Of a DNA stretch of 64,000 nt, positions 1 to 60,102 are shown one piece after another. The DNA comes from Escherichia coli. Its GTDB lineage: Bacteria; Pseudomonadota; Gammaproteobacteria; Enterobacterales; Enterobacteriaceae. The translations under genes and the position numbers were made by a program. How positions within the stretch are numbered: position 1 is the first letter of the stretch; each line of letters starts with the position of its first letter. Under the pieces are notes generated by a model. It saw only the letters and a list, made by a program, of their open reading frames with translations. It made no database searches and was not told the DNA's origin. The stretch is from NCBI RefSeq assembly GCF_044324875.1, contig NZ_CP172186.1; one strand, 5' to 3'.

Positions 1-855
1 ACGGTCATCACGGACGTAGACCCACAGCCGGGCTGTCCGGGTTTTACCGCTGCCCGGCTCCTGGACCGGGACGGGGATATCATCAGCATGGACTTTACCG
101 GGCATCAGCACATACTGGCGCAGGACGTCATACAGCGGCTCCAGCAGTTCAGCAACAGCACCTGTCCAGCGCCCCAGTGTGGCACGGCTCAGCTCCACTC
201 CCTGACGACGGTATATTTCTGACTGGCGGTATAACGGCAGATGGTCTGCATATTTCCCGGTGACAACATGGGCCAGAAGCCCCGCTCCGGCATAACTGCG
301 TGCAATGGGTTTTGAAGGTACTGGTGCCTGCACGATATGGTCGCACCGGCAACAGGCCTGTTTCGGACGTTGTGTTTCGATAACCTTAAAGGCGCTGCTG
401 ATAAGCTCCAGTTGCTCTGACACATCACATCCCAGAGAACTGAGTTCACCACCACAGGCAGGACAGCATTCCTCTTCCGGCCGGATAACCCGGGTTTCAC
501 GGGGAAGTGAGGCCGGTAACGGTTTACGGGCTGAAGACTGGCGCAGGGCGGATGGCAGTACCGGGTCATATTGCTCACCCAGCGTTTCCGCCATTTCTTC
601 CTGAAGTGCGCTGATTCGCTCCTGTGCTTCCTGTATCTGCCGTTCGGTTTTTGCACGAAGTTTTTCTGAGCTTTTACCGAACTGCATACGTTGCAGTTTC
701 GCAACCAGCGCCTTCAGCCGGTTGATTTCGGAAGCATAAGCCGCCACCCGCTGTGAGAGCAGGCGGTTGTATTCAGCCATCTGGCGGATGGTGTCCTGTT
801 GCGTCTGCAACAGTGCCCGCAGGCGGGCGTTCTCATGAGCAAGTGAGGTGTCCAT
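1..855 (-). CDS. tnpC: IS66-family transposase TnpC, N-terminal 285 codons (3' end outside window)
   Basis: Manual translation of minus strand from ATG at 855 is open to position 1: MDTSLAHENARLRALLQ...CCPACGG...[20 protein letters not shown]...LWVYVRDDR; colinear with the 512-aa TnpC at 8504-10042. Not in ORF track because it runs off the edge. Confidence 0.9.
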   Translation of the reverse strand, partial: MDTSLAHENARLRALLQTQQDTIRQMAEYNRLLSQRVAAYASEINRLKALVAKLQRMQFGKSSEKLRAKTERQIQEAQERISALQEEMAETLGEQYDPVLPSALRQSSARKPLPASLPRETRVIRPEEECCPACGGELSSLGCDVSEQLELISSAFKVIETQRPKQACCRCDHIVQAPVPSKPIARSYAGAGLLAHVVTGKYADHLPLYRQSEIYRRQGVELSRATLGRWTGAVAELLEPLYDVLRQYVLMPGKVHADDIPVPVQEPGSGKTRTARLWVYVRDDR

Positions 856-874
856 ATCCTCACTTTACAACGGG

Positions 875-1222
875 TTATATGCGGATTCCAGCGCGTTCCG
901 TTCGTTTCGGGTGCTTCCAGTTGATACCTTCAAGAAGCATGGATAACTGAGCCGGAGTAAGGTGCACCTTGCCGTCACGGGTGACTGGCCAGACGAAGCG
1001 GCCCCGCTCCAGGCGTTTGGTGAAGAGGCACAGTCCGTCACTGTCAGCCCACAACACTTTTATCTGGTCACCCCGGCGTCCGCGGAAGATGAACAGGTGT
1101 CCGGAGAACGGGTCATCCTTCAGGACGTTCTGAACTTTTGATGCCAGGCCGTTAAAGCCATTTCGCATATCGGTGATACCTGCAACCAGCCAGATACGCG
1201 AACCTGCAGGGAGAGATATCAT
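875..1222 (-). CDS. tnpB: IS66-family TnpB (orf2)
   Basis: 115 aa, about 75 percent identical to the TnpB at 8107-8454 ([17 protein letters not shown] motif). Confidence 0.9.
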   Translation of the reverse strand: MISLPAGSRIWLVAGITDMRNGFNGLASKVQNVLKDDPFSGHLFIFRGRRGDQIKVLWADSDGLCLFTKRLERGRFVWPVTRDGKVHLTPAQLSMLLEGINWKHPKRTERAGIRI

Positions 1223-1899
1223 CAGTGGCTGCTCCCTTTTATTTCGCGGATAAGTGTCTGTAATAACGCCGGCGTCAGTTTACCTTTAAGCCTGAGAGTT
1301 CCGGCCGGCAGAACCAGCTCACAACACAGACTGTCGGACGGTGTATTTATCTGCTCTGGTTCCTGTGCGGGGGCCGGGATTTTATTATCCGGCTCCGGCG
1401 TTAACGTCACGGGAAGCAGTGCCGGCATATTTTTTCCGGAAGGCAGCAGGCCACCTTTCCGGTATTGATGGCGCCAGTTGAAGAGCAGGTTATCGTTGAT
1501 TCCGTTTTCCCGGGCGATCTGCGCCACACAGGCTCCGGGCTGCAGTGACTGCTCCACTAAGGCGATTTTAAACTCATAAGGGAAGTTGGGCCGCCGGGGA
1601 CGTTTTTTTACCACGGGGGCTTCGGATATAACGGTGCTTTCAGGACGTACGACTGGTACCGTGGAAAATTGTCCGTAAAGGCAGGCATCAAGTTCCTGCT
1701 CCGACATGCCTGCGGGCAAAGGCCACGAAAGGCCAGCTCTCCGAAAGCGCACGAACATACTACAAACTGTTGATTTTGGTACACCCAGGCGACGCCCGGC
1801 CACAACCCGGGGTAAATGTTCTTCAAAGTGAAGACGTAAAGCTTCAGTGATCCAGGTCCGGTGTTTCATACGATAGTGTCCATTAAAAATGATGGACAT
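1222..1899 (-). CDS. tnpA: IS66-family TnpA (orf1); start codon uncertain
   Basis: C-terminal half matches IS66 orf1 of second copy (NDNLLFNWRHQYRKG...LRLKGKLTPALLQTLIREIK); upstream part of tracked ORF may be read-through. Confidence 0.75.
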   Translation of the reverse strand: MSIIFNGHYRMKHRTWITEALRLHFEEHLPRVVAGRRLGVPKSTVCSMFVRFRRAGLSWPLPAGMSEQELDACLYGQFSTVPVVRPESTVISEAPVVKKRPRRPNFPYEFKIALVEQSLQPGACVAQIARENGINDNLLFNWRHQYRKGGLLPSGKNMPALLPVTLTPEPDNKIPAPAQEPEQINTPSDSLCCELVLPAGTLRLKGKLTPALLQTLIREIKGSSH

Positions 1900-1952
1900 T
1901 ATTTTTGTAGAGCCGGAGGAAACAGACCAGACGGTTTAAATGAGCCGGTTAC

Positions 1953-2699
1953 GTTTTTCCAGCTCTTACGGTGTATTACCTCCGCTTTGTAAAGGCCATT
2001 GATGCTCTCCGCCATCGCGTTGTCATACGAGTCACCAGTACTTCCTGTTGATGCCAGTAATCCGGCTTCCTTAAGCCGCTGTGTGTAGGCCAGCGATACA
2101 TACTGAGAACCTTTATCACTGTGATGGACTGTGCCGGACGGTCGACGGGCCCATAACGCCTGCTCCAGAGCATCCAGCACGAATGTCGTTTCCATAGACG
2201 ATGAGACCCGCCACCCCACGATGTATCCGGCAAACACATCAATGATGAACGCCACATAGACGACCCCCTGCCATGTGCTGACGTAAGTAAAATCAGCCAC
2301 CCACAACTGGTCAGGACGTTCTGCCACAAACTGACGGTTTACGCGGTCGCCTGCGGCAACGGCTTTCCGGCTGACGGTAGTGCGGACCTTTTTACCCCGG
2401 AGAACACCGGCAAGTCCCATAACCGCCATGAGGCGCGCCACTGTACATCTGGCTACCCTGATTCCTTCCCGTAACAACTGACGCCAGACTTTACGCACAC
2501 CGTATACCTGATGATTCCCATCGTATACGCGCAGTATCTCTTTCTTCAGCCAGTCATCGCGCTGCGCACGGGCACTGCGTTTATAAGGATGATGTCGCTG
2601 TTGCTGACAGTGGTAATACGTTGACGGGGCAATATGTAGTTCACTGCATACCGGTCCGACCCCGTACAGCTTACGCAGCTTATCCAGCAGTGGCATCAC
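1953..2699 (-). pseudogene. IS3-family transposase OrfB, C-terminally truncated
   Basis: About 95 percent identical to orfB at 15556-16401 up to ...EVIHRKSWKN, then reads into IS66 sequence (tracked ORF 1899-2699). Confidence 0.8.
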
Positions 2700-3022
2700 T
2701 TTTTCCAGAGGCGGTCGAACTCCGCCTTCGCAAAATAAGCGGAAGCCTGGCGAAGGATATCGTTACTGCGGCGCAGTTCACGATTTTCACGTTCCAGCTC
2801 TTTCAGACGCTGACGTTCAGCGGTGGTGAGCCCGCCATCACCGCCTCCGGTATCCCGCTCATGCTGGCGTACCCAGACACGCAGAGTCTCCGGTGTACAG
2901 CCAATCTTTGGGGCAATGGAACAAATTGCCGCCCACTGTGAGTCATATTCGCCCTGACTTTCCAGAACCATACGAATCGCCCTCTGACGGACTTCGGGGG
3001 AAAAACGAGTATTTTTAGTCAT
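2696..3022 (-). CDS. IS3-family transposase OrfA (HTH)
   Basis: 108 aa [15 protein letters not shown]..., near-identical to 15208-15534 and 58909-59235. Confidence 0.9.
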
Positions 3023-3076
3023 TCTGTTTACCTCTTTCTCAGGGAGTTTAGTCTCCAGGATTCCCGGGGCGGTTCA

Positions 3077-3631
3077 GTTTATGAAAACATATCATCATTC
3101 ATTCGAGATGTTTTTATACACTCTGAAGAAAATGATCTCATTCCTGATTTTCTTAATTCGACATTCGTTGACTGGGATGATGCAAAGTACATGACAGAAA
3201 GTATGAGCTTCGTACTGGAAGAAGTATCAGTTATCCTGAACAAAGAGAATACCGAAACAACAGAAATTTCTTATGATCAAAACCTGTATTCACTTCTGGC
3301 TCATCATAATCATATTACCCCTTGCTGGAATAATGTTATTTCTCTACTGAGTGAAGATGCGTCACTTGCTGGTGATACTTTTTGTAAGTGGCTTAATATT
3401 AATTATTCTTTATTGCCAAATGACTCGTTGCCTTTGACTGATGTTCAGTTCTCGCAATTACTTATTAAGGCTGTTACATCACCTCATATCAGTAAAGAAG
3501 CGTTAATAGCGATAACCATGGCATTTAGGATAACTCTTATTAATGTACCAGAAAACTTACCACTGAATAATGCTGCGGTACTAATCAAGCAAAAATGGCT
3601 GGCACCAACCAGTACTGTGTTTGAACAACTT
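3077..3631 (+). pseudogene. Internal fragment of a low-GC gene of unknown function, truncated 5' by IS629-like and 3' by IS1
   Basis: Frame of tracked ORF 3191-3658 is open upstream to the IS boundary at 3076 and its stop codon lies inside the IS1 IR; AT-rich composition. Confidence 0.4.
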
Positions 3632-15207: not shown

Positions 15208-15534
15208 ATGACTAAAAATACTCGTTTTTCCCCCGAAGTCCGTCAACGGGCAGTTCGTATGGTTCTGGAAAGCCAGGGCGAATATGACTCACAATGGGCG
15301 GCAATTTGTTCCATTGCTCCAAAGATTGGCTGTACGCCAGAGACCCTGCGTGTCTGGGTTCGCCAGCATGAGCGGGATACCGGGGGCGGTGATGGTGGGC
15401 TCACCACCGCTGAACGTCAGCGTCTGAAAGAGCTGGAACGCGAAAATCGTGAACTGCGCCGCAGTAACGATATCCTTCGCCAGGCTTCCGCTTATTTTGC
15501 GAAGGCGGAGTTCGACCGCCTCTGGAAAAAATAA
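15208..15534 (+). CDS. IS3-family transposase OrfA
   Basis: 108 aa [26 protein letters not shown]... Confidence 0.9.
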
Positions 15535-15555
15535 TGCCACTGCTGGATAAGCTGC

Positions 15556-16401
15556 GTGAGCTGCAGTGAGCTGCATATTGCCCCGTCAACGTATTACCAC
15601 TGTCAGCAACAGCAGCATCATCCTGATAAACGCAGCGCCCGTGCGCAGCGTGATGACTGGCTGAAGAAAGAGATACAGCGCGTATACGATGAAAATCACC
15701 AGGTGTACGGTGTGCGTAAAGTCTGGCGTCAGTTGTTACGGGAAGGTATCAGAGTGGCCAGATGCACTGTGACACGTCTTATGGCGGTTATGGGTTTTGC
15801 CGATGTTCTCCGGGGTAAAAAGGTCCGCATTACCGTCAGCCGGAAAGCCGTTGCCGCAGGCGACCGCGTAAACCGTCATTTCGTGGCAGAACGTCCTGAC
15901 CAGCTGTGGGTGGCTGATTTTACTTACGTCAGCACATGGCAGGGCTTTGTTTATGTGGCGTTCATCATTGATGTGTTTGCCGGATACATCGTGGGATGGC
16001 GGGTCTCCTCGTCCATGGAAACGACATTCGTGCTGGATGCACTGGAGCAGGCGTTGTGGGCCCGTCGTCCATCTGGCACCATCCATCACAGCGATAAAGG
16101 CTCTCAGTATGTATCGCTGGCCTACACGCAGCGGCTTAAGGAAGTCGGATTACTGGCATCAACAGGGAGCACAGGCGACTCGTATGACAACGCGATGGCG
16201 GAGAGCATCAATGGTCTTTACAAGGCGGAGGTAATACACCGTAAGAGCTGGAAAAACCGGACAGAAGTGGAGCTGGCTACACTCACGTGGGTGGACTGGT
16301 ATAACAATCGACGATTGCTGGAAAGGCTGGGCCATACTCCCCCGGCAGAAGCAGAAAAAGCTTATTATGCTTCCATCGGAAACAATGATCTGGCAGCCTG
16401 A
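15556..16401 (+). CDS. IS3-family transposase OrfB (DDE; made as OrfAB fusion by -1 frameshift)
   Basis: 281 aa; tracked start is an alternative codon downstream of the frameshift window. Confidence 0.85.
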   Translation: MSCSELHIAPSTYYHCQQQQHHPDKRSARAQRDDWLKKEIQRVYDENHQVYGVRKVWRQLLREGIRVARCTVTRLMAVMGFADVLRGKKVRITVSRKAVAAGDRVNRHFVAERPDQLWVADFTYVSTWQGFVYVAFIIDVFAGYIVGWRVSSSMETTFVLDALEQALWARRPSGTIHHSDKGSQYVSLAYTQRLKEVGLLASTGSTGDSYDNAMAESINGLYKAEVIHRKSWKNRTEVELATLTWVDWYNNRRLLERLGHTPPAEAEKAYYASIGNNDLAA

Positions 16402-38299: not shown

Positions 38300-38870
38300 C
38301 TTACACATGCGCCCCTTCGGCTCCCGGCTGCCTGGCGGCATCCGGTCGTCAGGCCCGACTCCGACAGGCAGCTGCTGGCGCACCCGCCAGTCTCCGCCGA
38401 ACCCGCTGGCGCGGTTTCGGGCTGTCGCTACGGTCCGATGCGTGAAAACCCGGGCTTGCAGCGACCGTTCCGGTCGCGCCGCCTCTGTCGCGCCGTGACC
38501 TGCGCTCCCTGCACACCTGACGGTGTGTGAGGAAACTGCGCCTGATGGCGCAGCAGTCCTCCCTCCTGCCGCCACCTCTGCGGCCTGTTTCCCGCTGTGG
38601 ACTTTCCGGGGGGCAGACGTAACCCCCTCCCGTTCCATCTGTCCAGGGTGAGATGCACCGGCCACAAAATTTTTAGCCATGAACCCGGCAAAAAATTTTG
38701 CGTCCGCCCCCGGACAGCTGCCCCGTGAGGCGGTAAACGGGCCCCCATCGGAAAGGTCCACTGCGGGGAGAAACCCCTGTGAAGTGGACGGCAGGAGGAG
38801 CTTTCGCTCCTCTGAAGGGGCACATGAACGTCCCGTCGCCGGTATCCGGTTTATCTCACATCTTTCAGTC
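38300..38870 (+). repeat. GC-rich direct repeat family B, copy 1 (upstream of ssb)
   Basis: Shares long near-identical blocks with 49960-50500 and 53020-53370 (e.g. CTTCGGCTCCCGGCTGCCTGGCGGCATCCGGTCGTC, GGAAAGGTCCACTGCGGGGAGAAACCCC). Confidence 0.6.
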
Positions 38871-38920: not shown

Positions 38921-41581
38921 GTGCGCCGTTGAAGCGCGGTGTTTTATGGAGTGTTGCCTGAAAAGCAACATGGCTTAGTGGTATAGCCATTGCATACTGT
39001 GGTTAGCCTTGCTTGGTAACAGGCTCGGAGATCCTGAAAAGGAGAGGTGAACATAGCATCCACAGAAAAGGGTGGTGAATATGGAAATCGTTATAAGTAT
39101 CACCATTCAATGCAAGATGTATATGGATAAACTGGGTTTGTTGAAGTCGAGATCTATGTGGGAAACAGGAAACCAATAACGCAGAACGATTGAAGCGTTA
39201 TTCCCGTACTAGCACAAGAAATCCGTCCGACGTTGATTGTGACCACTCTAACGGGCCAGCTATTGATGAAATAGTTAAACGATCGAAAGACATCCTAAGT
39301 ACATCGCATCTCCACACCGTGAAACTACGGGACTACCTAAACTGGATTTATACCCAGCATGGTAGCGGAGTCTCCATAGTACTCAAGGTCGGCCTGTAAT
39401 GGGTTCCGGCAGTCCGCATTATACGGAAGCAGCAAAGGTATAAATCAACCGGAAGGAAGATGAAAGCCTCACAGTGCTGCGGGGAAGGGAGACAGTTGTT
39501 AGATACATCAATCTCTAAGAGGAGGGTTAGCCAATGCTGCCTGATGAACTTGAGAAAAGATTAGATGGAATTGAGGATGCTTCAAAAAAAGGGTATCCAG
39601 TACGTAATCTATACAAAATTGCGTGTGAGCCCGGACTGTGGCTGCAAGCCTACGTGAATATACGGGCCAATGCAGGTGCACTGACTCAAGGTGTATCAAC
39701 AGATACCATTGATGGCTTTTCTATCGAAAGAGCAGAGAAGCTGGCAAAAACATTGCGGAGTAGAGAATACGTAGCGAAACCTGTACGCAGAGTTCAGATC
39801 CCAAAAAAGGACGGAAAAACCAGACCGCTGGGGATTCCAGGTGGAGACGATAAACTGGCGCAAGAAGTAGCAAGAATTATTCTGGAAAGGGTTTATGAAC
39901 CAGTATTCTCTGAACACTCTCATGGATTCAGACCAAAACGTTCGTGTGAAACTGCGCTCAGATCTATTCGTCCAGTCTGGAACGGAGTTAAATGGATCGT
40001 GGATGTTGATATCAAAGGTTTCTTTGACAATATCCCCCACAAACTATTGCTGAATACACTGGCAGAGAAAATTAAGGATAAGAATTTCCTGAAATTAATC
40101 GAACAGTGGCTGAAGGCAGGATATGTGGACAATTGGAAATACCATCGCTCATATTCTGGCACGCCACAAGGTGGGATAATTTCTCCCTTACTGGCAAATA
40201 TATACCTCGACAAACTGGACCGTTTTGTAGAACAGAATTTAATTCCTGCATATACAAGCGGTACAAAACGAAGAGCGAATCCAGATATGAACAGGCTGGC
40301 CCATAAGATTCATAAACTACGAAAGAAAGTAGACGGTATGGCAACTGATTCTGAATCAGAAAAAGAAGCCATAAAGAAAGAAATTGAACGACTGCTTGAA
40401 GAAAAACGTTCTATACCATCTCAGGTCATGAACGATCCAAACTTCAGGCGTATGTACTATGTTCGATATGCTGATGACTTCGTAATCGGTGTCATCGGCT
40501 CGAAGAAAGATGCTGAACATATATCAAGACAGGTCAGAAACTTTATTACTACTTCACTGGGATTGGAAGTTAATGAAGCAAAGACCAGGATCCGCCATAT
40601 CTCAGAAGGAGTTAATTTTTTAGGCTATGAAATCAGACAGGCAGATGCAAAGAAATTGCTGAAGCAGAAAATGCAAGGGCGGCACGCTCTCCGGAGATCC
40701 ACCACAGGAATTGTGCAGCTCTTCGTTCCTGACAATATAGCCGCTAAATTTTGTCACCAAAAGAAATATGGCTGTTATGAGAATGTGAAGGCTGTACATC
40801 GTTCAAGTCTACAAAATCTCAGTGAAGCTGAAATTGTTCTGACTTTCAACGCGGAAATGCGCGGATTGGCGAACTACTACAGTCTGGCGCTGGACATGAA
40901 ATATAAATTATCAAAATTATATTTCATATGGCAAATAAGCCTTTTTAAGACCCTGGCGAATAAACGACGTAGTTCAGTGAATAAAGTCGCCAAATCGCTA
41001 CGGCAAAATAATGGAGATCTGGCTATTACCGTTCAGGCCAAAAATGGATCCCGAAAGATTGAGGTTTTCAAACTCAAACATGTCAATCGCAACCGAACAA
41101 CGATTGTCGATACGGAACCGAGAACCGCACATATCACAACCCGCACAACAGAGATCATGCGTCGATTAGGGGCAAGGATCTGCGAGTATTGTGCGAAGAC
41201 TGGGCGCTGCGAAGTACATCATGTCAGAAAGCTAAAAGACCTGAAGAAAGGTCGTAAGGCCGGATATAAACCCAGCTTGTGGCAACTAATGATGATCGCA
41301 CGCCGCCGGAAAACGATGATTTTGTGCGCAAGTTGCCACGACAAGTTACATAGCGGAAAACTACCCGATTTGAGACAGGAAAAGGGAAGAATACTCCTGC
41401 AACCACCTGTCTCAAGCGGGGATTCTGCTAAATGAGTTTATCCCCAATAAGCTAGCAATGGAGAGCCGTATGCACTGAAAGGTGCACGTACGGTTCGGAG
41501 GGGGGGTAACGGTGATCTAACTCAAGATAAGCAGGACATATTCGCCATTTATCTTGAAAGACCACACGTACCCTACCCTAC
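38921..41581 (+). mobile_element. Group II intron (2661 bp) inserted in ssb
   Basis: 5' GTGCG, 3' ...AC; domain V-like hairpin GAGCCGTATGCACTGAAAGGTGCACGTACGGTTC at about 41462; encodes RT/maturase/HNH protein; flanking exons splice in frame. Confidence 0.85.
39534..41435 (+). CDS. Group II intron-encoded protein (reverse transcriptase - maturase - HNH endonuclease)
   Basis: 633 aa; RT motifs incl. YADDFVIGV; C-terminal HNH CEYC...HHV...CASCHDKLH. Confidence 0.9.
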   Translation: MLPDELEKRLDGIEDASKKGYPVRNLYKIACEPGLWLQAYVNIRANAGALTQGVSTDTIDGFSIERAEKLAKTLRSREYVAKPVRRVQIPKKDGKTRPLGIPGGDDKLAQEVARIILERVYEPVFSEHSHGFRPKRSCETALRSIRPVWNGVKWIVDVDIKGFFDNIPHKLLLNTLAEKIKDKNFLKLIEQWLKAGYVDNWKYHRSYSGTPQGGIISPLLANIYLDKLDRFVEQNLIPAYTSGTKRRANPDMNRLAHKIHKLRKKVDGMATDSESEKEAIKKEIERLLEEKRSIPSQVMNDPNFRRMYYVRYADDFVIGVIGSKKDAEHISRQVRNFITTSLGLEVNEAKTRIRHISEGVNFLGYEIRQADAKKLLKQKMQGRHALRRSTTGIVQLFVPDNIAAKFCHQKKYGCYENVKAVHRSSLQNLSEAEIVLTFNAEMRGLANYYSLALDMKYKLSKLYFIWQISLFKTLANKRRSSVNKVAKSLRQNNGDLAITVQAKNGSRKIEVFKLKHVNRNRTTIVDTEPRTAHITTRTTEIMRRLGARICEYCAKTGRCEVHHVRKLKDLKKGRKAGYKPSLWQLMMIARRRKTMILCASCHDKLHSGKLPDLRQEKGRILLQPPVSSGDSAK

Positions 41582-44426: not shown

Positions 44427-44864
44427 GTGATGAAAACTGAACTGACCCTGAATGCCCTGCAGTCCATGAACGCACAGGAATATGAAGATATCCGTGCTGC
44501 GGGAAGCGATATGCGCCGTAATCTCACTCACGAGGTGATGCGTGAAGTGGACGCACCGGCTAACTGGATGATGAATGGCGAGTATGGCAGTGAGTTCGGG
44601 GGCTTTTTCCCCGTCCAGGTTCGTTTCACGCCAGCCCACGAACGTTTCCACCTGGCATTATGTTCGCCGGGAGACGTCTCTCAGCTCTGGATGCTGGTTC
44701 TGGTGAGTGGTGGTGGACAGCCTTTCGCCGTCGTTCAGGTGCAACATATCTTCACGCCTGTCGCGATCAGTCACACGCTGGCGCTCGCCGCGACACTTGA
44801 TGCGCAGGGATACAGTGTTAACGACATCATTCATATTTTGATGGCAGAAGGAGGTCAGGCATGA
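44427..44864 (+). CDS. psiB: PsiB (plasmid SOS inhibition protein B)
   Basis: About 145 aa; stop TGA overlaps the psiA ATG (ATGA at 44861-44864). Confidence 0.8.
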
Positions 44865-44990
44865 GCGCATGCAAAATGGCATCTGAATCGATCGCAGTTT
44901 GGCATTCGAATCGATCATGATTTGGCATCCATCTCCGATCACAGTTTGGCATCACAATCGATCACGATTTGGCATGCTTCCGATCATTGA

Positions 44991-46637
44991 TTGGCATCCT
45001 GCCAGTCACTCCGGGAATTAACTCTTTTCACCACAGTCTCCATTGCCGTGTTTAAACCAGTGGAGACGTCAATGTCCAGAAAGAGAAAATCCAGGAGCAC
45101 TATGGAAACCTGTTTTAAGATCCTTCAGCTCAAGTTCGACAAGAAGCTGACTAACCGTTGTATCGGACTGACGTTACACATCAGCGCCTCAACCGTTTTT
45201 GAGGTTCTTGCCCGCTTCAAAGCCTCTTCTCTGTCATGGCCATTACCTGCTGATATATCCCATGACACGCTGGAGAAACTCATTTTTCCGCCCAAAGACA
45301 CCTTTGCATCAGAGCTTGTAATGCCTGACATGTTGTACTTCGATACGGAAATGAGAAAACCAGGTGTGACGCGGCAACTGTTGTGGATGGAATACAAGGC
45401 ACAGGCGGGTAACAAAGCGATGGGATACTCGCACTTCTGCCGTTGCTACCGGGAGTGGAAAAAAACGCGACGTCTCTCCATGCGCCAGGAGCATCGTGCC
45501 GGCGAAAAGCTTTTTATCGACTTCTGTGGTCCTACGGTTCCTGTTATTAATCCGGACACCGGTGAGATACGCCGCGTGGCAATCTTCGTGGCCGTAATGG
45601 GGGCGTCCAACTATACCTACGTTGAAGCGTGCGAAGGTCAGGACATGATGTCATGGTTAAATGCCCACAGCCGTTGCCTGACCTTCCTGGGCGGCGTACC
45701 GAAGCTGCTCATCCCCGATAACCTCAGAAGCGCAGTGAAAAAGGCCGATCGATATGAGCCTGTCATCAACGACAGTTATCAGGCACTGGCTGAGCACTAT
45801 GGCACGGTTATCATCCCGGCCCGACCACGCAAACCTAAAGATAAACCAAAAGCAGAAAACGGCGTCCTCATCGTTGAACGATGGCTTCTTGCCCGCATCC
45901 GTAATGAAACCTTCCACACGCTCAGGGCGCTGAATGCGCGCCTTAGGGAGTTACTGACAGACATGAATAACCGGCCAATGAAGGGGTACGGCAATCAAAC
46001 CCGTGCAGAACGCTTCCGCATACTGGATGCGCCAGCACTCTCTCCGCTGCCTCTGGCACCTTATGAATACACGGAATACAAAGCTGTGAAGGTTGGCCCT
46101 GACTACCACGTTGAATATGCCCGTCACTGGTACTCCGTTCCACACGAACTGGTCGGTCAGCGTCTGTCACTGAAGGCGGGGCAGTCGGTGGTACAGCTCT
46201 GGCACAAGGGGCAGTGTGTGGCGCAACATCCGCGCAGCACACATGAATATAAACACACAACCAATCCGCTTCACATGCCAGAGCGCCACCGGCAGCACGG
46301 GACATGGACACCGGAACGCCTGATCGAGCAGGGAAAACGTACGGGCCCGTCCACAGGCCGGGTGGTTGAATCCATGCTGAAGGCAAAACCCCATCCGGAA
46401 CTGGCTTATCGTGCAGTTCTGGGGCTGCTGGCACTTCAGAAAAAATACGGCCCGGAACGGCTGGAAAAGGCCTGTTACGTTGCCCTGCACTATAACGCCC
46501 CTGACAGACGCTTTATCGACAATCTGCTGCGTCACCATCGGGAGAACCTGGAGCTTCCATTATCCCGCCAGGGCGAACAACATCCGGCATATGCTTCAGA
46601 GCATGAAAACCTGCGTGGTCCGGGCTACTACCACTGA
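44991..46637 (+). CDS. istA: IS21-family transposase IstA (start codon uncertain)
   Basis: N-terminal HTH, DDE core (tracked ORF 548 aa). Confidence 0.85.
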   Translation: MASCQSLRELTLFTTVSIAVFKPVETSMSRKRKSRSTMETCFKILQLKFDKKLTNRCIGLTLHISASTVFEVLARFKASSLSWPLPADISHDTLEKLIFPPKDTFASELVMPDMLYFDTEMRKPGVTRQLLWMEYKAQAGNKAMGYSHFCRCYREWKKTRRLSMRQEHRAGEKLFIDFCGPTVPVINPDTGEIRRVAIFVAVMGASNYTYVEACEGQDMMSWLNAHSRCLTFLGGVPKLLIPDNLRSAVKKADRYEPVINDSYQALAEHYGTVIIPARPRKPKDKPKAENGVLIVERWLLARIRNETFHTLRALNARLRELLTDMNNRPMKGYGNQTRAERFRILDAPALSPLPLAPYEYTEYKAVKVGPDYHVEYARHWYSVPHELVGQRLSLKAGQSVVQLWHKGQCVAQHPRSTHEYKHTTNPLHMPERHRQHGTWTPERLIEQGKRTGPSTGRVVESMLKAKPHPELAYRAVLGLLALQKKYGPERLEKACYVALHYNAPDRRFIDNLLRHHRENLELPLSRQGEQHPAYASEHENLRGPGYYH

Positions 46638-46653
46638 CAGAAGGAACAACAGT

Positions 46654-47409
46654 ATGAGTGATAACCTGTTAAACAAACTGACCCAACTGAAACTCCCGGC
46701 GATGGCCGGGAGCCTGATACGGCAGCGGGAAACGCCTCAGACCTACGACGAACTGTCGTTCGAGGAAAGGCTGACGCTGCTGGTTGATGACGAGCTTCTG
46801 AGCAGGGAAAACAGCCGTGTGGCACGGTTGAGAAAAAATGCCGGCCTGAAATACCAGGCAACACCGGAAGGGCTGCGCTATCCGGCCTCAAGAGGTCTGC
46901 GGGCTGAACAGATGAGAGAACTGCTGAACGGCCACTACATAACCCACAGGAAAAACCTGCTGATAACCGGTCCGACAGGATGTGGCAAGAGCTGGATAGC
47001 CAATGCGCTGGGCGAACAGGCATGTCGACAGAAACACAGCGTCCGGTACTGTAGAACCGGGCGATTACTGGAACAACTGGCTCAGGGACGTGTTGATGGC
47101 AGCTGGCTGAAATATCTGAAACAGTTGCAAAAAATACAGGTTCTAATCCTGGACGATCTGGGGCTGGAACAGTTAAGTAACGCCCAGTGTAATGACCTTC
47201 TGGAGCTCATAGAGGATCGTTACGGACAAAGCAGCACGATAGTGGTAAGCCAGTTCCCGGTAGATAAATGGCATGGTCTGATGGAGAACCCAACAACAGC
47301 AGATGCCATCCTGGACAGACTGGTACATAACTCACACCGAGTGGTCCTTCAGGGAGAGTCACTGAGGAAAAATCCCCCGGTAGTGGAAAGCAGCGAAAAA
47401 ACGCGTTAA
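46654..47409 (+). CDS. istB: IS21-family helper ATPase IstB
   Basis: 251 aa; Walker A GPTGCGKS, Walker B VLILDDLG. Confidence 0.9.
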   Translation: MSDNLLNKLTQLKLPAMAGSLIRQRETPQTYDELSFEERLTLLVDDELLSRENSRVARLRKNAGLKYQATPEGLRYPASRGLRAEQMRELLNGHYITHRKNLLITGPTGCGKSWIANALGEQACRQKHSVRYCRTGRLLEQLAQGRVDGSWLKYLKQLQKIQVLILDDLGLEQLSNAQCNDLLELIEDRYGQSSTIVVSQFPVDKWHGLMENPTTADAILDRLVHNSHRVVLQGESLRKNPPVVESSEKTR

Positions 47410-47508
47410 AAAGCGGTAGAAAAAGTTAAGTTCCCGGTTGATCGAATGGATGCGAATCGCTGATCGGACTTCGATGCCAATCCGTGATCGAATAGAGCGG
47501 AATACGCA

Positions 47509-48225
47509 AGCGCACGTTCACGGGCACTGATCCCCCTCAGCGCAGAACAACAGGCCGCTATGCAGGCTGTGGCTGTCACCGAACAACGTCGTCGTCAGGG
47601 ACGCACACTTTCAGCATGGCCTTATGCCACCGCTTTCTTTCGCTGCCTGAATGGCAGTCGCCGGATTTCGCTGACCGATCTCCGCTTTTTTGCCCCTGCG
47701 CTGACGAAGGAGGAATTTCATGGCAACCGTCTCCTGTGGCTGGCTGCAGTGGACAAACTGATTGAAAGTTTTGGTGAAGTCTGTGTTCTTCCCCTGCCAT
47801 CCGATGCGGGGCATCGTTTGTTCCCGTCCGTTCCTTTTCGTGAAGGTGAGCGGCGTCGTCAGAAAACCACGCTGACAGAGCAGAAATACAGCCGCCAGCG
47901 GGAACGTGAGGCAGAACGACGGGAACGGGAATACCAGACATGTTTTGCTCAGGCGCAGATTGACCTTGCGTTTCATACTCCCGCCACGGTCGGAAGCTGG
48001 TTGTCCCGCTGGTCTGGTGTTGTTGAGGAGCATGATCTGGAAACGATTTTCTGGGGGTGGTGCGGGCGTTTTCCATCACTGTCATCATTTGACCGGTTTT
48101 TCTGGCAGGAGGAACCACTCTGGCGGTTGATTTTTGAAGCCGGTGAGGCCGGTCGTGGTGCACCGGTACAGGTACGTGCACTTGAGCAGTGGATGATCCC
48201 GAACAAGCTGGAGAACGTAATATGA
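47509..48225 (+). pseudogene. psiA: psiA, disrupted after codon 3 by the IS21-family element (an N-truncated product from ATG 47560 remains possible)
   Basis: ATG AGC GCA at 44861-44869 then IS; frame resumes SARSLAIPLSAEQQAAMQAV... Confidence 0.75.
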
Positions 48226-48818
48226 TGAAATCAGACGAAAAATACCAGGTTCCCGCGTGGATGCGACCTCTGTTGCCGTTGCTCTGCAACACCGGGGAGA
48301 ACGATCCGGAAGAACTGCTGAATGATACAGAAACCACTGCCAGTGCGAATGTTGTCCGTTATGTGCTGATAGTTGCTGTGCGGTCGCAGGTTGATCTGCT
48401 GCAGCTTCTGTACAGGAAAGGGCTGTTGCGCACAGAGATACCAGGTGGCTTTTCACCGGAAGAAGCGCAGGAACTCCTGGATAATCTGGTGCGCAGCCAT
48501 ATCAGCAGGGCGCTGTCGGGTGAGCGAATGGCAGCCCGTGACAGGAATGCCGATCTGGCCTGGATTCGACAGCAACTGGTCGATGCCGCCTGGTTTGTCC
48601 GTGCCACACTGGAAGCGCATGGGATGAGCGTCGGAAATGAGAGTCCCCCTGCTCAGCCGGAGACAATGCCGGACATACAGACACGGGAACTGGTGATGTT
48701 GATCAAGCGACTGGCATCATCGCTGAAAGCGGTGAAACCGGACAGTTGTGTGGTGCGTGAAGCGCAGGACTGGCTGCGCGACAGAAAACTTGTGAGCATC
48801 ACGGATGTTCTTCGGTGA
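48222..48818 (+). CDS. Hypothetical leading-region protein
   Basis: 198 aa from ATG 48222. Confidence 0.55.
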   Translation: MMKSDEKYQVPAWMRPLLPLLCNTGENDPEELLNDTETTASANVVRYVLIVAVRSQVDLLQLLYRKGLLRTEIPGGFSPEEAQELLDNLVRSHISRALSGERMAARDRNADLAWIRQQLVDAAWFVRATLEAHGMSVGNESPPAQPETMPDIQTRELVMLIKRLASSLKAVKPDSCVVREAQDWLRDRKLVSITDVLR

Positions 48819-48926
48819 ACCAGTGGAGGTATGCTTGAGGAGCAGGGACATGCCGGCCATGATCGTTTCGTTCCAGGGGTGGTCTGGAGATCATGCGGCG
48901 TGTCCTCTGCACTCGCCGGAATAAGG

Positions 48927-49265
48927 ACGTCGCCGCCGGCTCCGCTTTTACCCGGCCATGCGGGGCATGGCCTTGTGGGTTTTCAGCTCTGTGGCCTCAG
49001 CGTCGTGTGCGGGCTGTGCCGTGCCTCCATCGTAGCCGGGCTTCTGCGGGCGGGATGCAAGGTAAGATGAACCGCTGCGGTCACCCGGTCCCTCCTTCCC
49101 GTCTGCCGTGATTTTCCGGTCGTTCACCCGCTCAGATTTCGCGGTCTCACCCTCCAACTCCCGTCAGCCGTGCGCGTCGGGCTGCGGCTTTCCTTGCGCC
49201 CTTGCATCCCTGCAGGCCCGGCAAAGATGGAGGCACGGCACCGCCCGGTGTCGCAGAACATGTGA
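48927..49265 (+). repeat. GC-rich direct repeat family A, copy 2 (upstream of ardA)
   Basis: Near-identical to 36691-37030. Confidence 0.6.
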
Positions 49266-49282
49266 CTATGGAGGATTCGGGA

Positions 49283-49783
49283 ATGTCTGTTGTTGCACCT
49301 GCTGTATACGTTGGAACCTGGCACAAATATAACTGCGGAAGCATCGCCGGCCGCTGGTTTGACCTGACCACGTTTGATGATGAACGCGATTTTTTCGCCG
49401 CCTGCCGTGCCCTTCACCAGGATGAAACCGATCCGGAACTGATGTTTCAGGATTATGAGGGTTTCCCGGGGAATATGGCCTCTGAATGTCATATCAACTG
49501 GGCCTGGGTTGAAGGCTTCCGCCGGGCACGGGATGAAGGCTGCGAAGAGGCTTATCGTCTCTGGGTGGATGATACCGGTGAGACGGATTTTGACAGCTTC
49601 CGCGATGCCTGGTGGGGCGAGGCTGACAGTGAGGAGGCTTTTGCGGTTGAGTTCGTCAGTGATACCGGCCTGCTGGCTGACGTGCCGGAGACGGTGGCGC
49701 TCTATTTTGACTATGAGGCGTATGCGCGGGATTTATTCCTGGACTCCTTCACCTTTATTGACGGTCATGTGTTCCGTCGGTGA
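49283..49783 (+). CDS. ardA: ArdA antirestriction protein (DNA mimic)
   Basis: MSVVAPAVYVGTWHKYNCGSIAGRWFDL...; 166 aa, very acidic; GGAGGA RBS. Confidence 0.85.
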   Translation: MSVVAPAVYVGTWHKYNCGSIAGRWFDLTTFDDERDFFAACRALHQDETDPELMFQDYEGFPGNMASECHINWAWVEGFRRARDEGCEEAYRLWVDDTGETDFDSFRDAWWGEADSEEAFAVEFVSDTGLLADVPETVALYFDYEAYARDLFLDSFTFIDGHVFRR

Positions 49784-49959: not shown

Positions 49960-50500
49960 GACACCCTTCGGCTCCCGGCTGCCTGGCGGCATCCGGTCGT
50001 CGGCCCGACTCCGACAGGCAGCTGCTGGCGCACCCGCCAGTCTCCGCCGAACCCGCTGGCGCGGTTTCGGGCTGCCGCTACGGTCCGATGTCTGAAAAAC
50101 CAGGCCTGCAGCGACCGTTCCGGTCGCGCCGCCCCTGTCGCGCCGGAAACGGCGCTCCCTGCACACCTGACGGTGTGTAAGGCCACTGCGCCTGATGGCG
50201 CAGTCAACCCTTCCGCCGCCACCCCTGCGGCCTGTTTCCCGCTGTGGACTTTCCGGGGGCTGAAGCGGCCACAACACGGGGCAGCCGTCCAGGGGAGAGA
50301 TGTACCAGCCACAAAACTTTTTGCCGCAGGCGTCAAAAACTTTTGCGTCTGCCCCCGGACAACTGCCCCGTGCCGTGGCAGTCGCTGCCCCATCGGAAAG
50401 GTCCACTGCGGGGAGAAACCCCGAAGAAGTGGACGGCAGAAGGGGCTTTCGCCCCTCCGGGGGAGCAACCGGTCGGCCCGGCGACCTGATTCAGCAGAAG
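49960..50500 (+). repeat. GC-rich direct repeat family B, copy 2
   Basis: See 38300-38870. Confidence 0.6.
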
Positions 50501-52909: not shown

Positions 52910-53019
52910 TTTTTTGGTTGTAAATGTCGTGCGGTTTTCTCTGTTTTCACCTGTGCGGGAGTGGTGTGCCAGTGACCACCACATGCCATTGTTGTGCCGT
53001 CGTTTTTCTTCAGTCGCGC

Positions 53020-53370
53020 CGGATGCGGCGCTCCCTGCACACCTTACGGTGTGTAAGGCCACTGCGCCTGATGGCGCAGCTGCCTCTGCCTGTCTGCCGC
53101 CGCACTGCGGCCTGTTCTCCGCAGACGGACTTTCCGGGGGTACATACACGACCACATCCCGTTTCAGTCGTCCAGGGGAGAGATGTACCAGCCACAAAAC
53201 TTTTTGCCGCAGGCGTCAAAAACTTTTGCGTCTGCCCCCGGACAACTGCCCCGTGACGTGGTGAGCGTCCCCCGTCGGAAAGGTCCACTGCGGGGAAATC
53301 CCCGAAGACCCGGACGGCAGAAGGAGCTTCGCTCCTCCGGGAAATGACCTGGCTGACCCGGCAGTCGTGA
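53020..53370 (+). repeat. GC-rich direct repeat family B, copy 3 (partial)
   Basis: See 38300-38870. Confidence 0.55.
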
Positions 53371-58908: not shown

Positions 58909-59235
58909 ATGACTAAAAATACTCGTTTTTCCCCCGAAGTCCGTCAACGGGCAGTTCGTATGGTTCTGGAAAGCCAGGGCGAATATGACTCACAATGGGC
59001 GGCAATTTGTTCCATTGCTCCAAAGATTGGCTGTACGCCAGAGACCCTGCGTGTCTGGGTTCGCCAGCATGAGCGGGATACCGGGGGCGGTGATGGTGGG
59101 CTCACCACCGCTGAACGTCAGCGTCTGAAAGAGCTGGAACGCGAAAATCGTGAACTGCGCCGCAGTAACGATATCCTTCGCCAGGCTTCCGCTTATTTTG
59201 CGAAGGCGGAGTTCGACCGCCTCTGGAAAAAATAA
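58909..59235 (+). CDS. IS3-family transposase OrfA
   Basis: Identical to 15208-15534 product. Confidence 0.9.
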
Positions 59236-59256
59236 TGCCACTGCTGGATAAGCTGC

Positions 59257-60102
59257 GTGAGCTGCAGTGAGCTGCATATTGCCCCGTCAACGTATTACCA
59301 CTGTCAGCAACAGCAGCATCATCCTGATAAACGCAGCGCCCGTGCGCAGCGTGATGACTGGCTGAAGAAAGAGATACAGCGCGTATACGATGAAAATCAC
59401 CAGGTGTACGGTGTGCGTAAAGTCTGGCGTCAGTTGTTACGGGAAGGTATCAGAGTGGCCAGATGCACTGTGACACGTCTTATGGCGGTTATGGGTTTTG
59501 CCGGTGTTCTCCGGGGTAAAAAGGTCCGCATTACCGTCAGCCGGAAAGCCGTTGCCGCAGGCGACCGCGTAAACCGTCATTTCGTGGCAGAACGTCCTGA
59601 CCAGCTGTGGGTGGCTGATTTTACTTACGTCAGCACATGGCAGGGCTTTGTTTATGTGGCGTTCATCATTGATGTGTTTGCCGGATACATCGTGGGATGG
59701 CGGGTCTCCTCGTCCATGGAAACGACATTCGTGCTGGATGCACTGGAGCAGGCGTTGTGGGCCCGTCGTCCGTCTGGCACCATCCATCACAGCGATAAAG
59801 GCTCTCAGTATGTATCGCTGGCCTACACGCAGCGGCTTAAGGAAGTCGGATTACTGGCATCAACAGGGAGCACAGGCGACTCGTATGACAACGCGATGGC
59901 GGAGAGCATCAATGGTCTTTACAAGGCGGAGGTAATACACCGTAAGAGCTGGAAAAACCGGACAGAAGTGGAGCTGGCTACACTCACGTGGGTGGACTGG
60001 TATAACAATCGACGATTGCTGGAAAGGCTGGGCCATACTCCCCCGGCAGAAGCAGAAAAAGCTTATTATGCTTCCATCGGAAACAATGATCTGGCAGCCT
60101 GA
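59257..60102 (+). CDS. IS3-family transposase OrfB
   Basis: 281 aa. Confidence 0.85.
   Translation: MSCSELHIAPSTYYHCQQQQHHPDKRSARAQRDDWLKKEIQRVYDENHQVYGVRKVWRQLLREGIRVARCTVTRLMAVMGFAGVLRGKKVRITVSRKAVAAGDRVNRHFVAERPDQLWVADFTYVSTWQGFVYVAFIIDVFAGYIVGWRVSSSMETTFVLDALEQALWARRPSGTIHHSDKGSQYVSLAYTQRLKEVGLLASTGSTGDSYDNAMAESINGLYKAEVIHRKSWKNRTEVELATLTWVDWYNNRRLLERLGHTPPAEAEKAYYASIGNNDLAA

Follow-up and report, generated by a model that had tools for sequence, protein, structure and literature searches.

In the window, that is, the whole 64-kb stretch of DNA that was analyzed, psiB (44430..44864, + strand) encodes an intact protein of 144 aa that matches the whole of the Pfam PF06290 profile (191 bits, profile positions 1–139 of 139), and the gene forms part of 1151 bp that match plasmid pLH50-c-A at 100% identity. 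The stop codon of psiB, TGA (44862–44864), overlaps the ATG of psiA (44861–44863) in the sequence ATGA. Inspection of the sequence showed that the start codon and codons 2 and 3 of psiA, ATG AGC GCA (44861..44869, + strand), are followed directly by an insertion sequence that reads TGCAAAATGG... from 44870; the sequence thus changes at 44870, right after psiA codon 3, to TGCAAAATGGCAT.... The last bases of the element, ...GAATACGCA, reach their final position at 47508, and psiA codons 4–239 (47515..48225, + strand; assigned by reconstruction and PF06952) resume in frame 3' of the element and run to 48225, severed from their start codon. At the two junctions stands AGCGCA (left copy 44864..44869, right copy 47509..47514, neither with an assigned strand), which is a perfect 6-bp target-site duplication of the short direct kind found in the IS21 family and is present as a single copy in the empty site.

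When the element and one AGCGCA were removed in silico, the psiB-psiA region was identical at 1151 of 1151 positions (100%) to NZ_CP100501.1, the sequence of pLH50-c-A, an IncK2/Z plasmid from Swiss poultry E. coli in which psiA encodes 239 aa; the reconstructed psiA of the window likewise encodes a 239-aa PsiA. The original prediction of an IS21-family element inserted three codons into psiA, with psiB intact, overlapping start and stop codons and duplicated AGCGCA flanks, agrees with the junction sequences, and the duplication and the IS ends held in the alignment with this intact locus. The rest of the window/leading region is 99.4–99.9% identical between the two plasmids, whereas pLH50-c-A has neither the IS in psiA nor a group II intron in ssb.

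A shortened reading frame of psiA

As the sequence stands, no start codon opens a full-length match to PF06952. The strong ribosome site of the native psiA start is still in place (GGAGG upstream, −12.4 kcal/mol), and the reading frame now runs into the element as a 19-codon fusion (44861..44920, + strand), of which the translation is a 19-aa junk peptide. No ATG, GTG or TTG was present from the in-frame stop at 47485 up to position 47560, and the first in-frame start 3' of the element is therefore the codon for Met19 of PsiA (47560..47562, + strand), with a ribosome site of −2.5 kcal/mol. The 221-aa ORF that begins there (47560–48225) matches PF06952 positions 19–236 of 237. Full-length PsiA cannot be made from this locus, as had been claimed, since the element cuts the start codon from codons 4–239.

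A naturally short psiA would have offered another account of this arrangement. PsiA relatives are, however, 236–244 aa long with a conserved N-terminus, and in 26 of them P10, L11, A17 and A18 are nearly invariant, while W, L or M occupies position 19, with W or L in most. Because the N-terminus of the relatives is conserved and Met19 is not, the short PsiA is not a natural variant. The weakness of the Met19 ribosome site, the lack of conservation of Met19 and the conservation of residues 1–18 together suggest that PsiA is most likely lost, that is, effectively knocked out. Structure prediction was dropped as a means of judging residues 1–18, the N-terminal half of the AlphaFold model having low confidence (pLDDT < 50 for residues 1–120), and a search for a solved structure of a PsiA relative found none.

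The element is a complete copy of ISSso4

The region 44870..47508 (+ strand, the orientation of psiB and psiA) is a single, complete IS21-family element of 2639 bp, identical (100%) across its full length to many plasmid and chromosome copies in PLSDB and RefSeq E. coli. ISSso4 is a common mobile element, with annotated copies on both plasmids and chromosomes of E. coli, E. fergusonii, Shigella and Salmonella. The element of the window bears the ISSso4 family label, a name taken from the NCBI PGAP labels on the 100% identical copies ('IS21 family transposase' and 'IS21-like element ISSso4 family helper ATPase IstB') and not from comparison with the ISfinder reference. A query that contained the flanks, with the element at query positions 471–3109, aligned to copies in other contexts only between 44870 and 47508, apart from a few bases that matched by chance, and all 13 of the ISSso4 copies fetched were 2639 bp long.

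The element has the TG...CA tips, imperfect terminal inverted repeats and multiple subterminal repeats of the IS21 family. Its left end (44870..44998, + strand) consists of the TG tip and five repeats of CGATC-N4-TTTGGCAT spaced by ~23 bp, and its right end (47450..47508, − strand) of two inverted copies of the repeat and the CA tip. The 17-nt subterminal repeat can be written CGATC-N3-R-TTTGGCAT. With up to 2 mismatches, the motif CGATCNNNRTTTGGCAT had seven matches in the 64-kb window, all seven in the element ends (five direct copies at 44889–44997 and two inverted at 47450–47490) and none elsewhere in the window; the chance expectation was 1.08 in 64 kb, and none of 100 shuffles gave seven. 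The tips and subterminal repeats that had been noticed by eye were thus borne out.

Two genes fill the interior. istA (45072..46637, + strand) encodes a DDE transposase of 521 aa from ATG 45072, which passes NCBIfam NF033546 (284.7 bits, cut-off 160) and carries Pfam rve and Mu-transpos_C_2 domains; in the PGAP annotation of identical copies the gene starts at 45102, giving 511 aa. Downstream on the same strand, with 17 nt from the istA stop to its start, istB (46654..47409, + strand) encodes a helper AAA+ ATPase of 251 aa, which passes NF038214 (257.8 bits, cut-off 200) and matches PF01695 (205.7 bits). This gene pair places the element in the IS21 family, as originally proposed.

ISSso4 shares with IS21 (PMC10122671) and IS5376 a layout in which a DDE transposase (IstA) is paired with an AAA+ helper (IstB), each end carries multiple repeats and the target duplication is short. 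It differs from them in being longer (2639 bp) and in having five left and two right repeats in place of L1/L2 and R1/R2, and its duplication at psiA is 6 bp compared with the 5 bp reported. Target duplications of 11 other ISSso4 copies were 4–7 bp, mostly 5–6 bp, indicating that 6 bp is normal for this element. ISSso4 is multi-copy in many strains, at up to 23 places per genome, and strain LH50-c, the host of pLH50-c-A, has it on a different plasmid. The occupation of many distinct sites by identical copies implies recent activity, and the copy in the window is intact and probably still active. One record, NZ_JBXSPU010000008.1 (E. coli ESDR8), has 2636 bp and contains nothing but ISSso4; it may represent either debris from assembly or the element in circular form.

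The insertion in psiA is an ordinary, recent IS transposition. No other record with the same psiA insertion was found in PLSDB, complete RefSeq E. coli genomes, GTDB species representatives or JGI metagenome contigs, and the psiA::ISSso4 allele is known from one assembly. What is new here is the allele only, as the element was already known and the inactivation is of an ordinary kind.

Operon context of the insertion

Upstream of ssb lies an Frpo/ssi-like repeat (38313..38812, + strand), which is repeated at 49964–50457 and 53010–53337; the three dispersed repeats in the window are 80–86% identical. The − (transferred) strand of the copy at 38313–38812 is predicted to fold into a long hairpin (z = −8.5). 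The three repeats of the window match the three single-strand promoters known from IncI plasmids (PMC10104558) and from F (PMC9849209). They are likely to be leading-region single-strand promoters, with the repeat at 38313–38812 serving the ssb-to-psiA unit.

Downstream, an ORF of 198 aa (48222..48818, + strand), annotated as a hypothetical protein in pLH50-c-A, begins with an ATG that overlaps the psiA stop (ATGA). It is probably coupled to psiA translation, given this overlap; no match to it was found among Pfam or NCBIfam profiles. In pEGY2, ISSso4 interrupts the homologue of this ORF. The next gene, ardA (49283–49783), lies ahead of the second Frpo/ssi-like repeat, with no Frpo-like repeat between psiA and ardA. 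We considered a certain polar effect on ardA and rejected it, since the 464-nt spacer upstream of the gene (48819–49282) has a long hairpin of its own on the − (transferred) strand (z = −4.5). This spacer does not resemble the ssi repeats and may be a separate single-strand promoter for ardA.

Consequences of the insertion

Taken as a whole, the data make it highly probable that ISSso4 transposed into psiA and knocked the gene out, with a phenotype that is neutral or mildly favourable. A single intact ISSso4 copy moved into the psiA gene carried by an IncK2/Z-type plasmid, a close relative of pLH50-c-A, and a 6-bp staggered cut after psiA codon 3 produced the perfect target duplication, with psiB left unchanged. 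Ribosomes coupling psiB translation to the psiA start now make the 19-aa peptide and terminate within the left end of the element. The Met19 product, if any, would be made in small amounts and would be missing 18 conserved residues. The downstream ORF, translationally coupled to psiA, would probably be under-expressed, and transcripts initiated early at the single-strand promoter ahead of ssb would have to cross an additional 2.6 kb and could enter istA-istB. We infer polarity, read-through and restart at Met19 from the sequence.

Previous work attributed SOS inhibition to psiB only and found psiA to be dispensable; deletion of psiA from pED208 did not raise mating-induced SOS but slightly lowered it and left transfer unchanged (PMC8406263). 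Loss of SOS inhibition is not expected here, because that activity belongs to PsiB, and, because of the slight decrease seen with the pED208 deletion, the IS-bearing plasmid is unlikely to induce more SOS than an IS-free derivative. Deletion of Frpo2 or ssb in F did not affect conjugation efficiency (PMC9849209). In IncI plasmids, transfer in one host strain increased through parallel loss-of-function mutations of the ssi3 operon, an effect tied mainly to yfhA and not to psiA (PMC10104558). By analogy with these plasmids, one would expect the insertion to have a neutral phenotype, or to favour transfer mildly in some hosts. The IncI ssi3 mutants (PMC10104558) and the pED208 psiA deletion (PMC8406263) have lost the operon and gene that are hit here; those cases comprise SNPs, frameshifts, deletions and engineered knockouts with measured phenotypes, whereas the present one is a natural IS insertion known from sequence.

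These parallel IncI mutations raise the question of whether the insertion was selected, in that loss of psiA, together with damped expression of the downstream ssb-to-psiA genes, would raise transfer or cut cost in poultry E. coli. Insertions of ISSso4 in genes of other plasmids point the same way: sense copies lie in a parB-like gene, ardA, a DUF3560 gene, a DUF932 gene and an antirestriction gene, and the ORF that follows psiA in pEGY2 holds an antisense copy. We nevertheless consider selection rather unlikely, as the published effect lies mainly with yfhA, the allele is present in a single sequence across all the collections searched, and IS insertions accumulate in non-essential genes without selection.

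The alternative that psiA is not knocked out supposes that read-through or right-end transcripts let ATG 47560 give a working 221-aa PsiA. Since the element points the same way as the operon and terminator prediction on the + strand gave none from 44870 to 47560, read-through transcripts are possible, and the ORF 47560–48225 is intact over PF06952 positions 19–236. A promoter within the element is a further potential source of transcripts, a −35 box having been reported in the IS21 right end (PMC10122671); however, no clear −35/−10 junction promoter could be recognized by consensus in ISSso4, and the search for an outward or hybrid promoter at its right end gave nothing scoring 9/12 or more, the best candidate reaching 7/12 and none spanning the junction. 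No + strand sigma-70-like site was found from the left end to 47560. The original prediction had made any shortened product from ATG 47560 depend on an outward-reading promoter of the IS; the shortened frame stands, but the strict need for such a promoter does not, since read-through could supply the transcript. According to the calculated energies, the real limit on this product is its weak ribosome site (−2.5 versus −12.4 kcal/mol for the native one). Together with the replacement of Met19 by W or L in most relatives and the truncation of a region whose residues 10, 11, 17 and 18 are nearly invariant, this makes a working 221-aa PsiA quite improbable, and knockout of psiA by ISSso4 is the reading that we retain.

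With the window included, eight of nine leading-region copies of ISSso4 are in the sense orientation (seven of the eight in other plasmids, IncF and IncI); besides the sense copies in the genes named above, one sense copy lies upstream of ssb and one follows a DUF1380 block. The idea of a sense bias was prompted by the first three of these cases, and the excess is not significant and suggestive only. A strict rule that ISSso4 is always sense in leading regions held for eight cases and was broken by the antisense copy of pEGY2, and a leading-region hot spot was likewise set aside, as two of six plasmid copies picked regardless of context lay in leading regions, a sample too small for enrichment. 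One could suppose that a sense element in an operon transcribed from a single-strand promoter on plasmid entry would give a burst of IstA/IstB in each new recipient and thereby couple transposition to conjugation, with sense leading-region insertions favoured for that or for their lower polarity, but we regard this as very unlikely. Two of the leading-region copies in other plasmids (L007 and L012) have no target duplications, which implies rearrangement. Finally, that an assembler put a repeated IS into psiA is exceedingly improbable, for, although ISSso4 is multi-copy in many strains and the allele is unique to this window, the perfect 6-bp duplication at both junctions and the exact element ends are the mark of transposition, not of misassembly.

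The transposition of ISSso4 into psiA would constitute a natural knockout of a conserved leading-region gene with psiB intact, which is of little importance by itself. The IS-bearing plasmid and its near-isogenic IS-free relative could provide a ready comparison for PsiA and the coupled downstream ORF. The insertion is another case of mobile elements hitting leading-region genes, and it agrees with experimental evolution in which the operon is expendable or costly in some hosts.

Other mobile elements in the window

A group II intron of 2661 bp (38921–41581, + strand) lies in the sense orientation within ssb, after codon 13. It starts with GTGCG and ends with CTAC, contains a reverse transcriptase/maturase ORF (39534–41435) and has an Rfam group II intron match (RF00029) at 41461–41581; its junction with ssb is shared with 124 PLSDB records. 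In addition, matches to the Rfam ALIL pseudoknot, an IS3-family frameshift signal, at 2625–2741 (− strand), 15489–15575 (+ strand) and 59190–59276 (+ strand) indicate three putative IS3-type copies elsewhere in the window.
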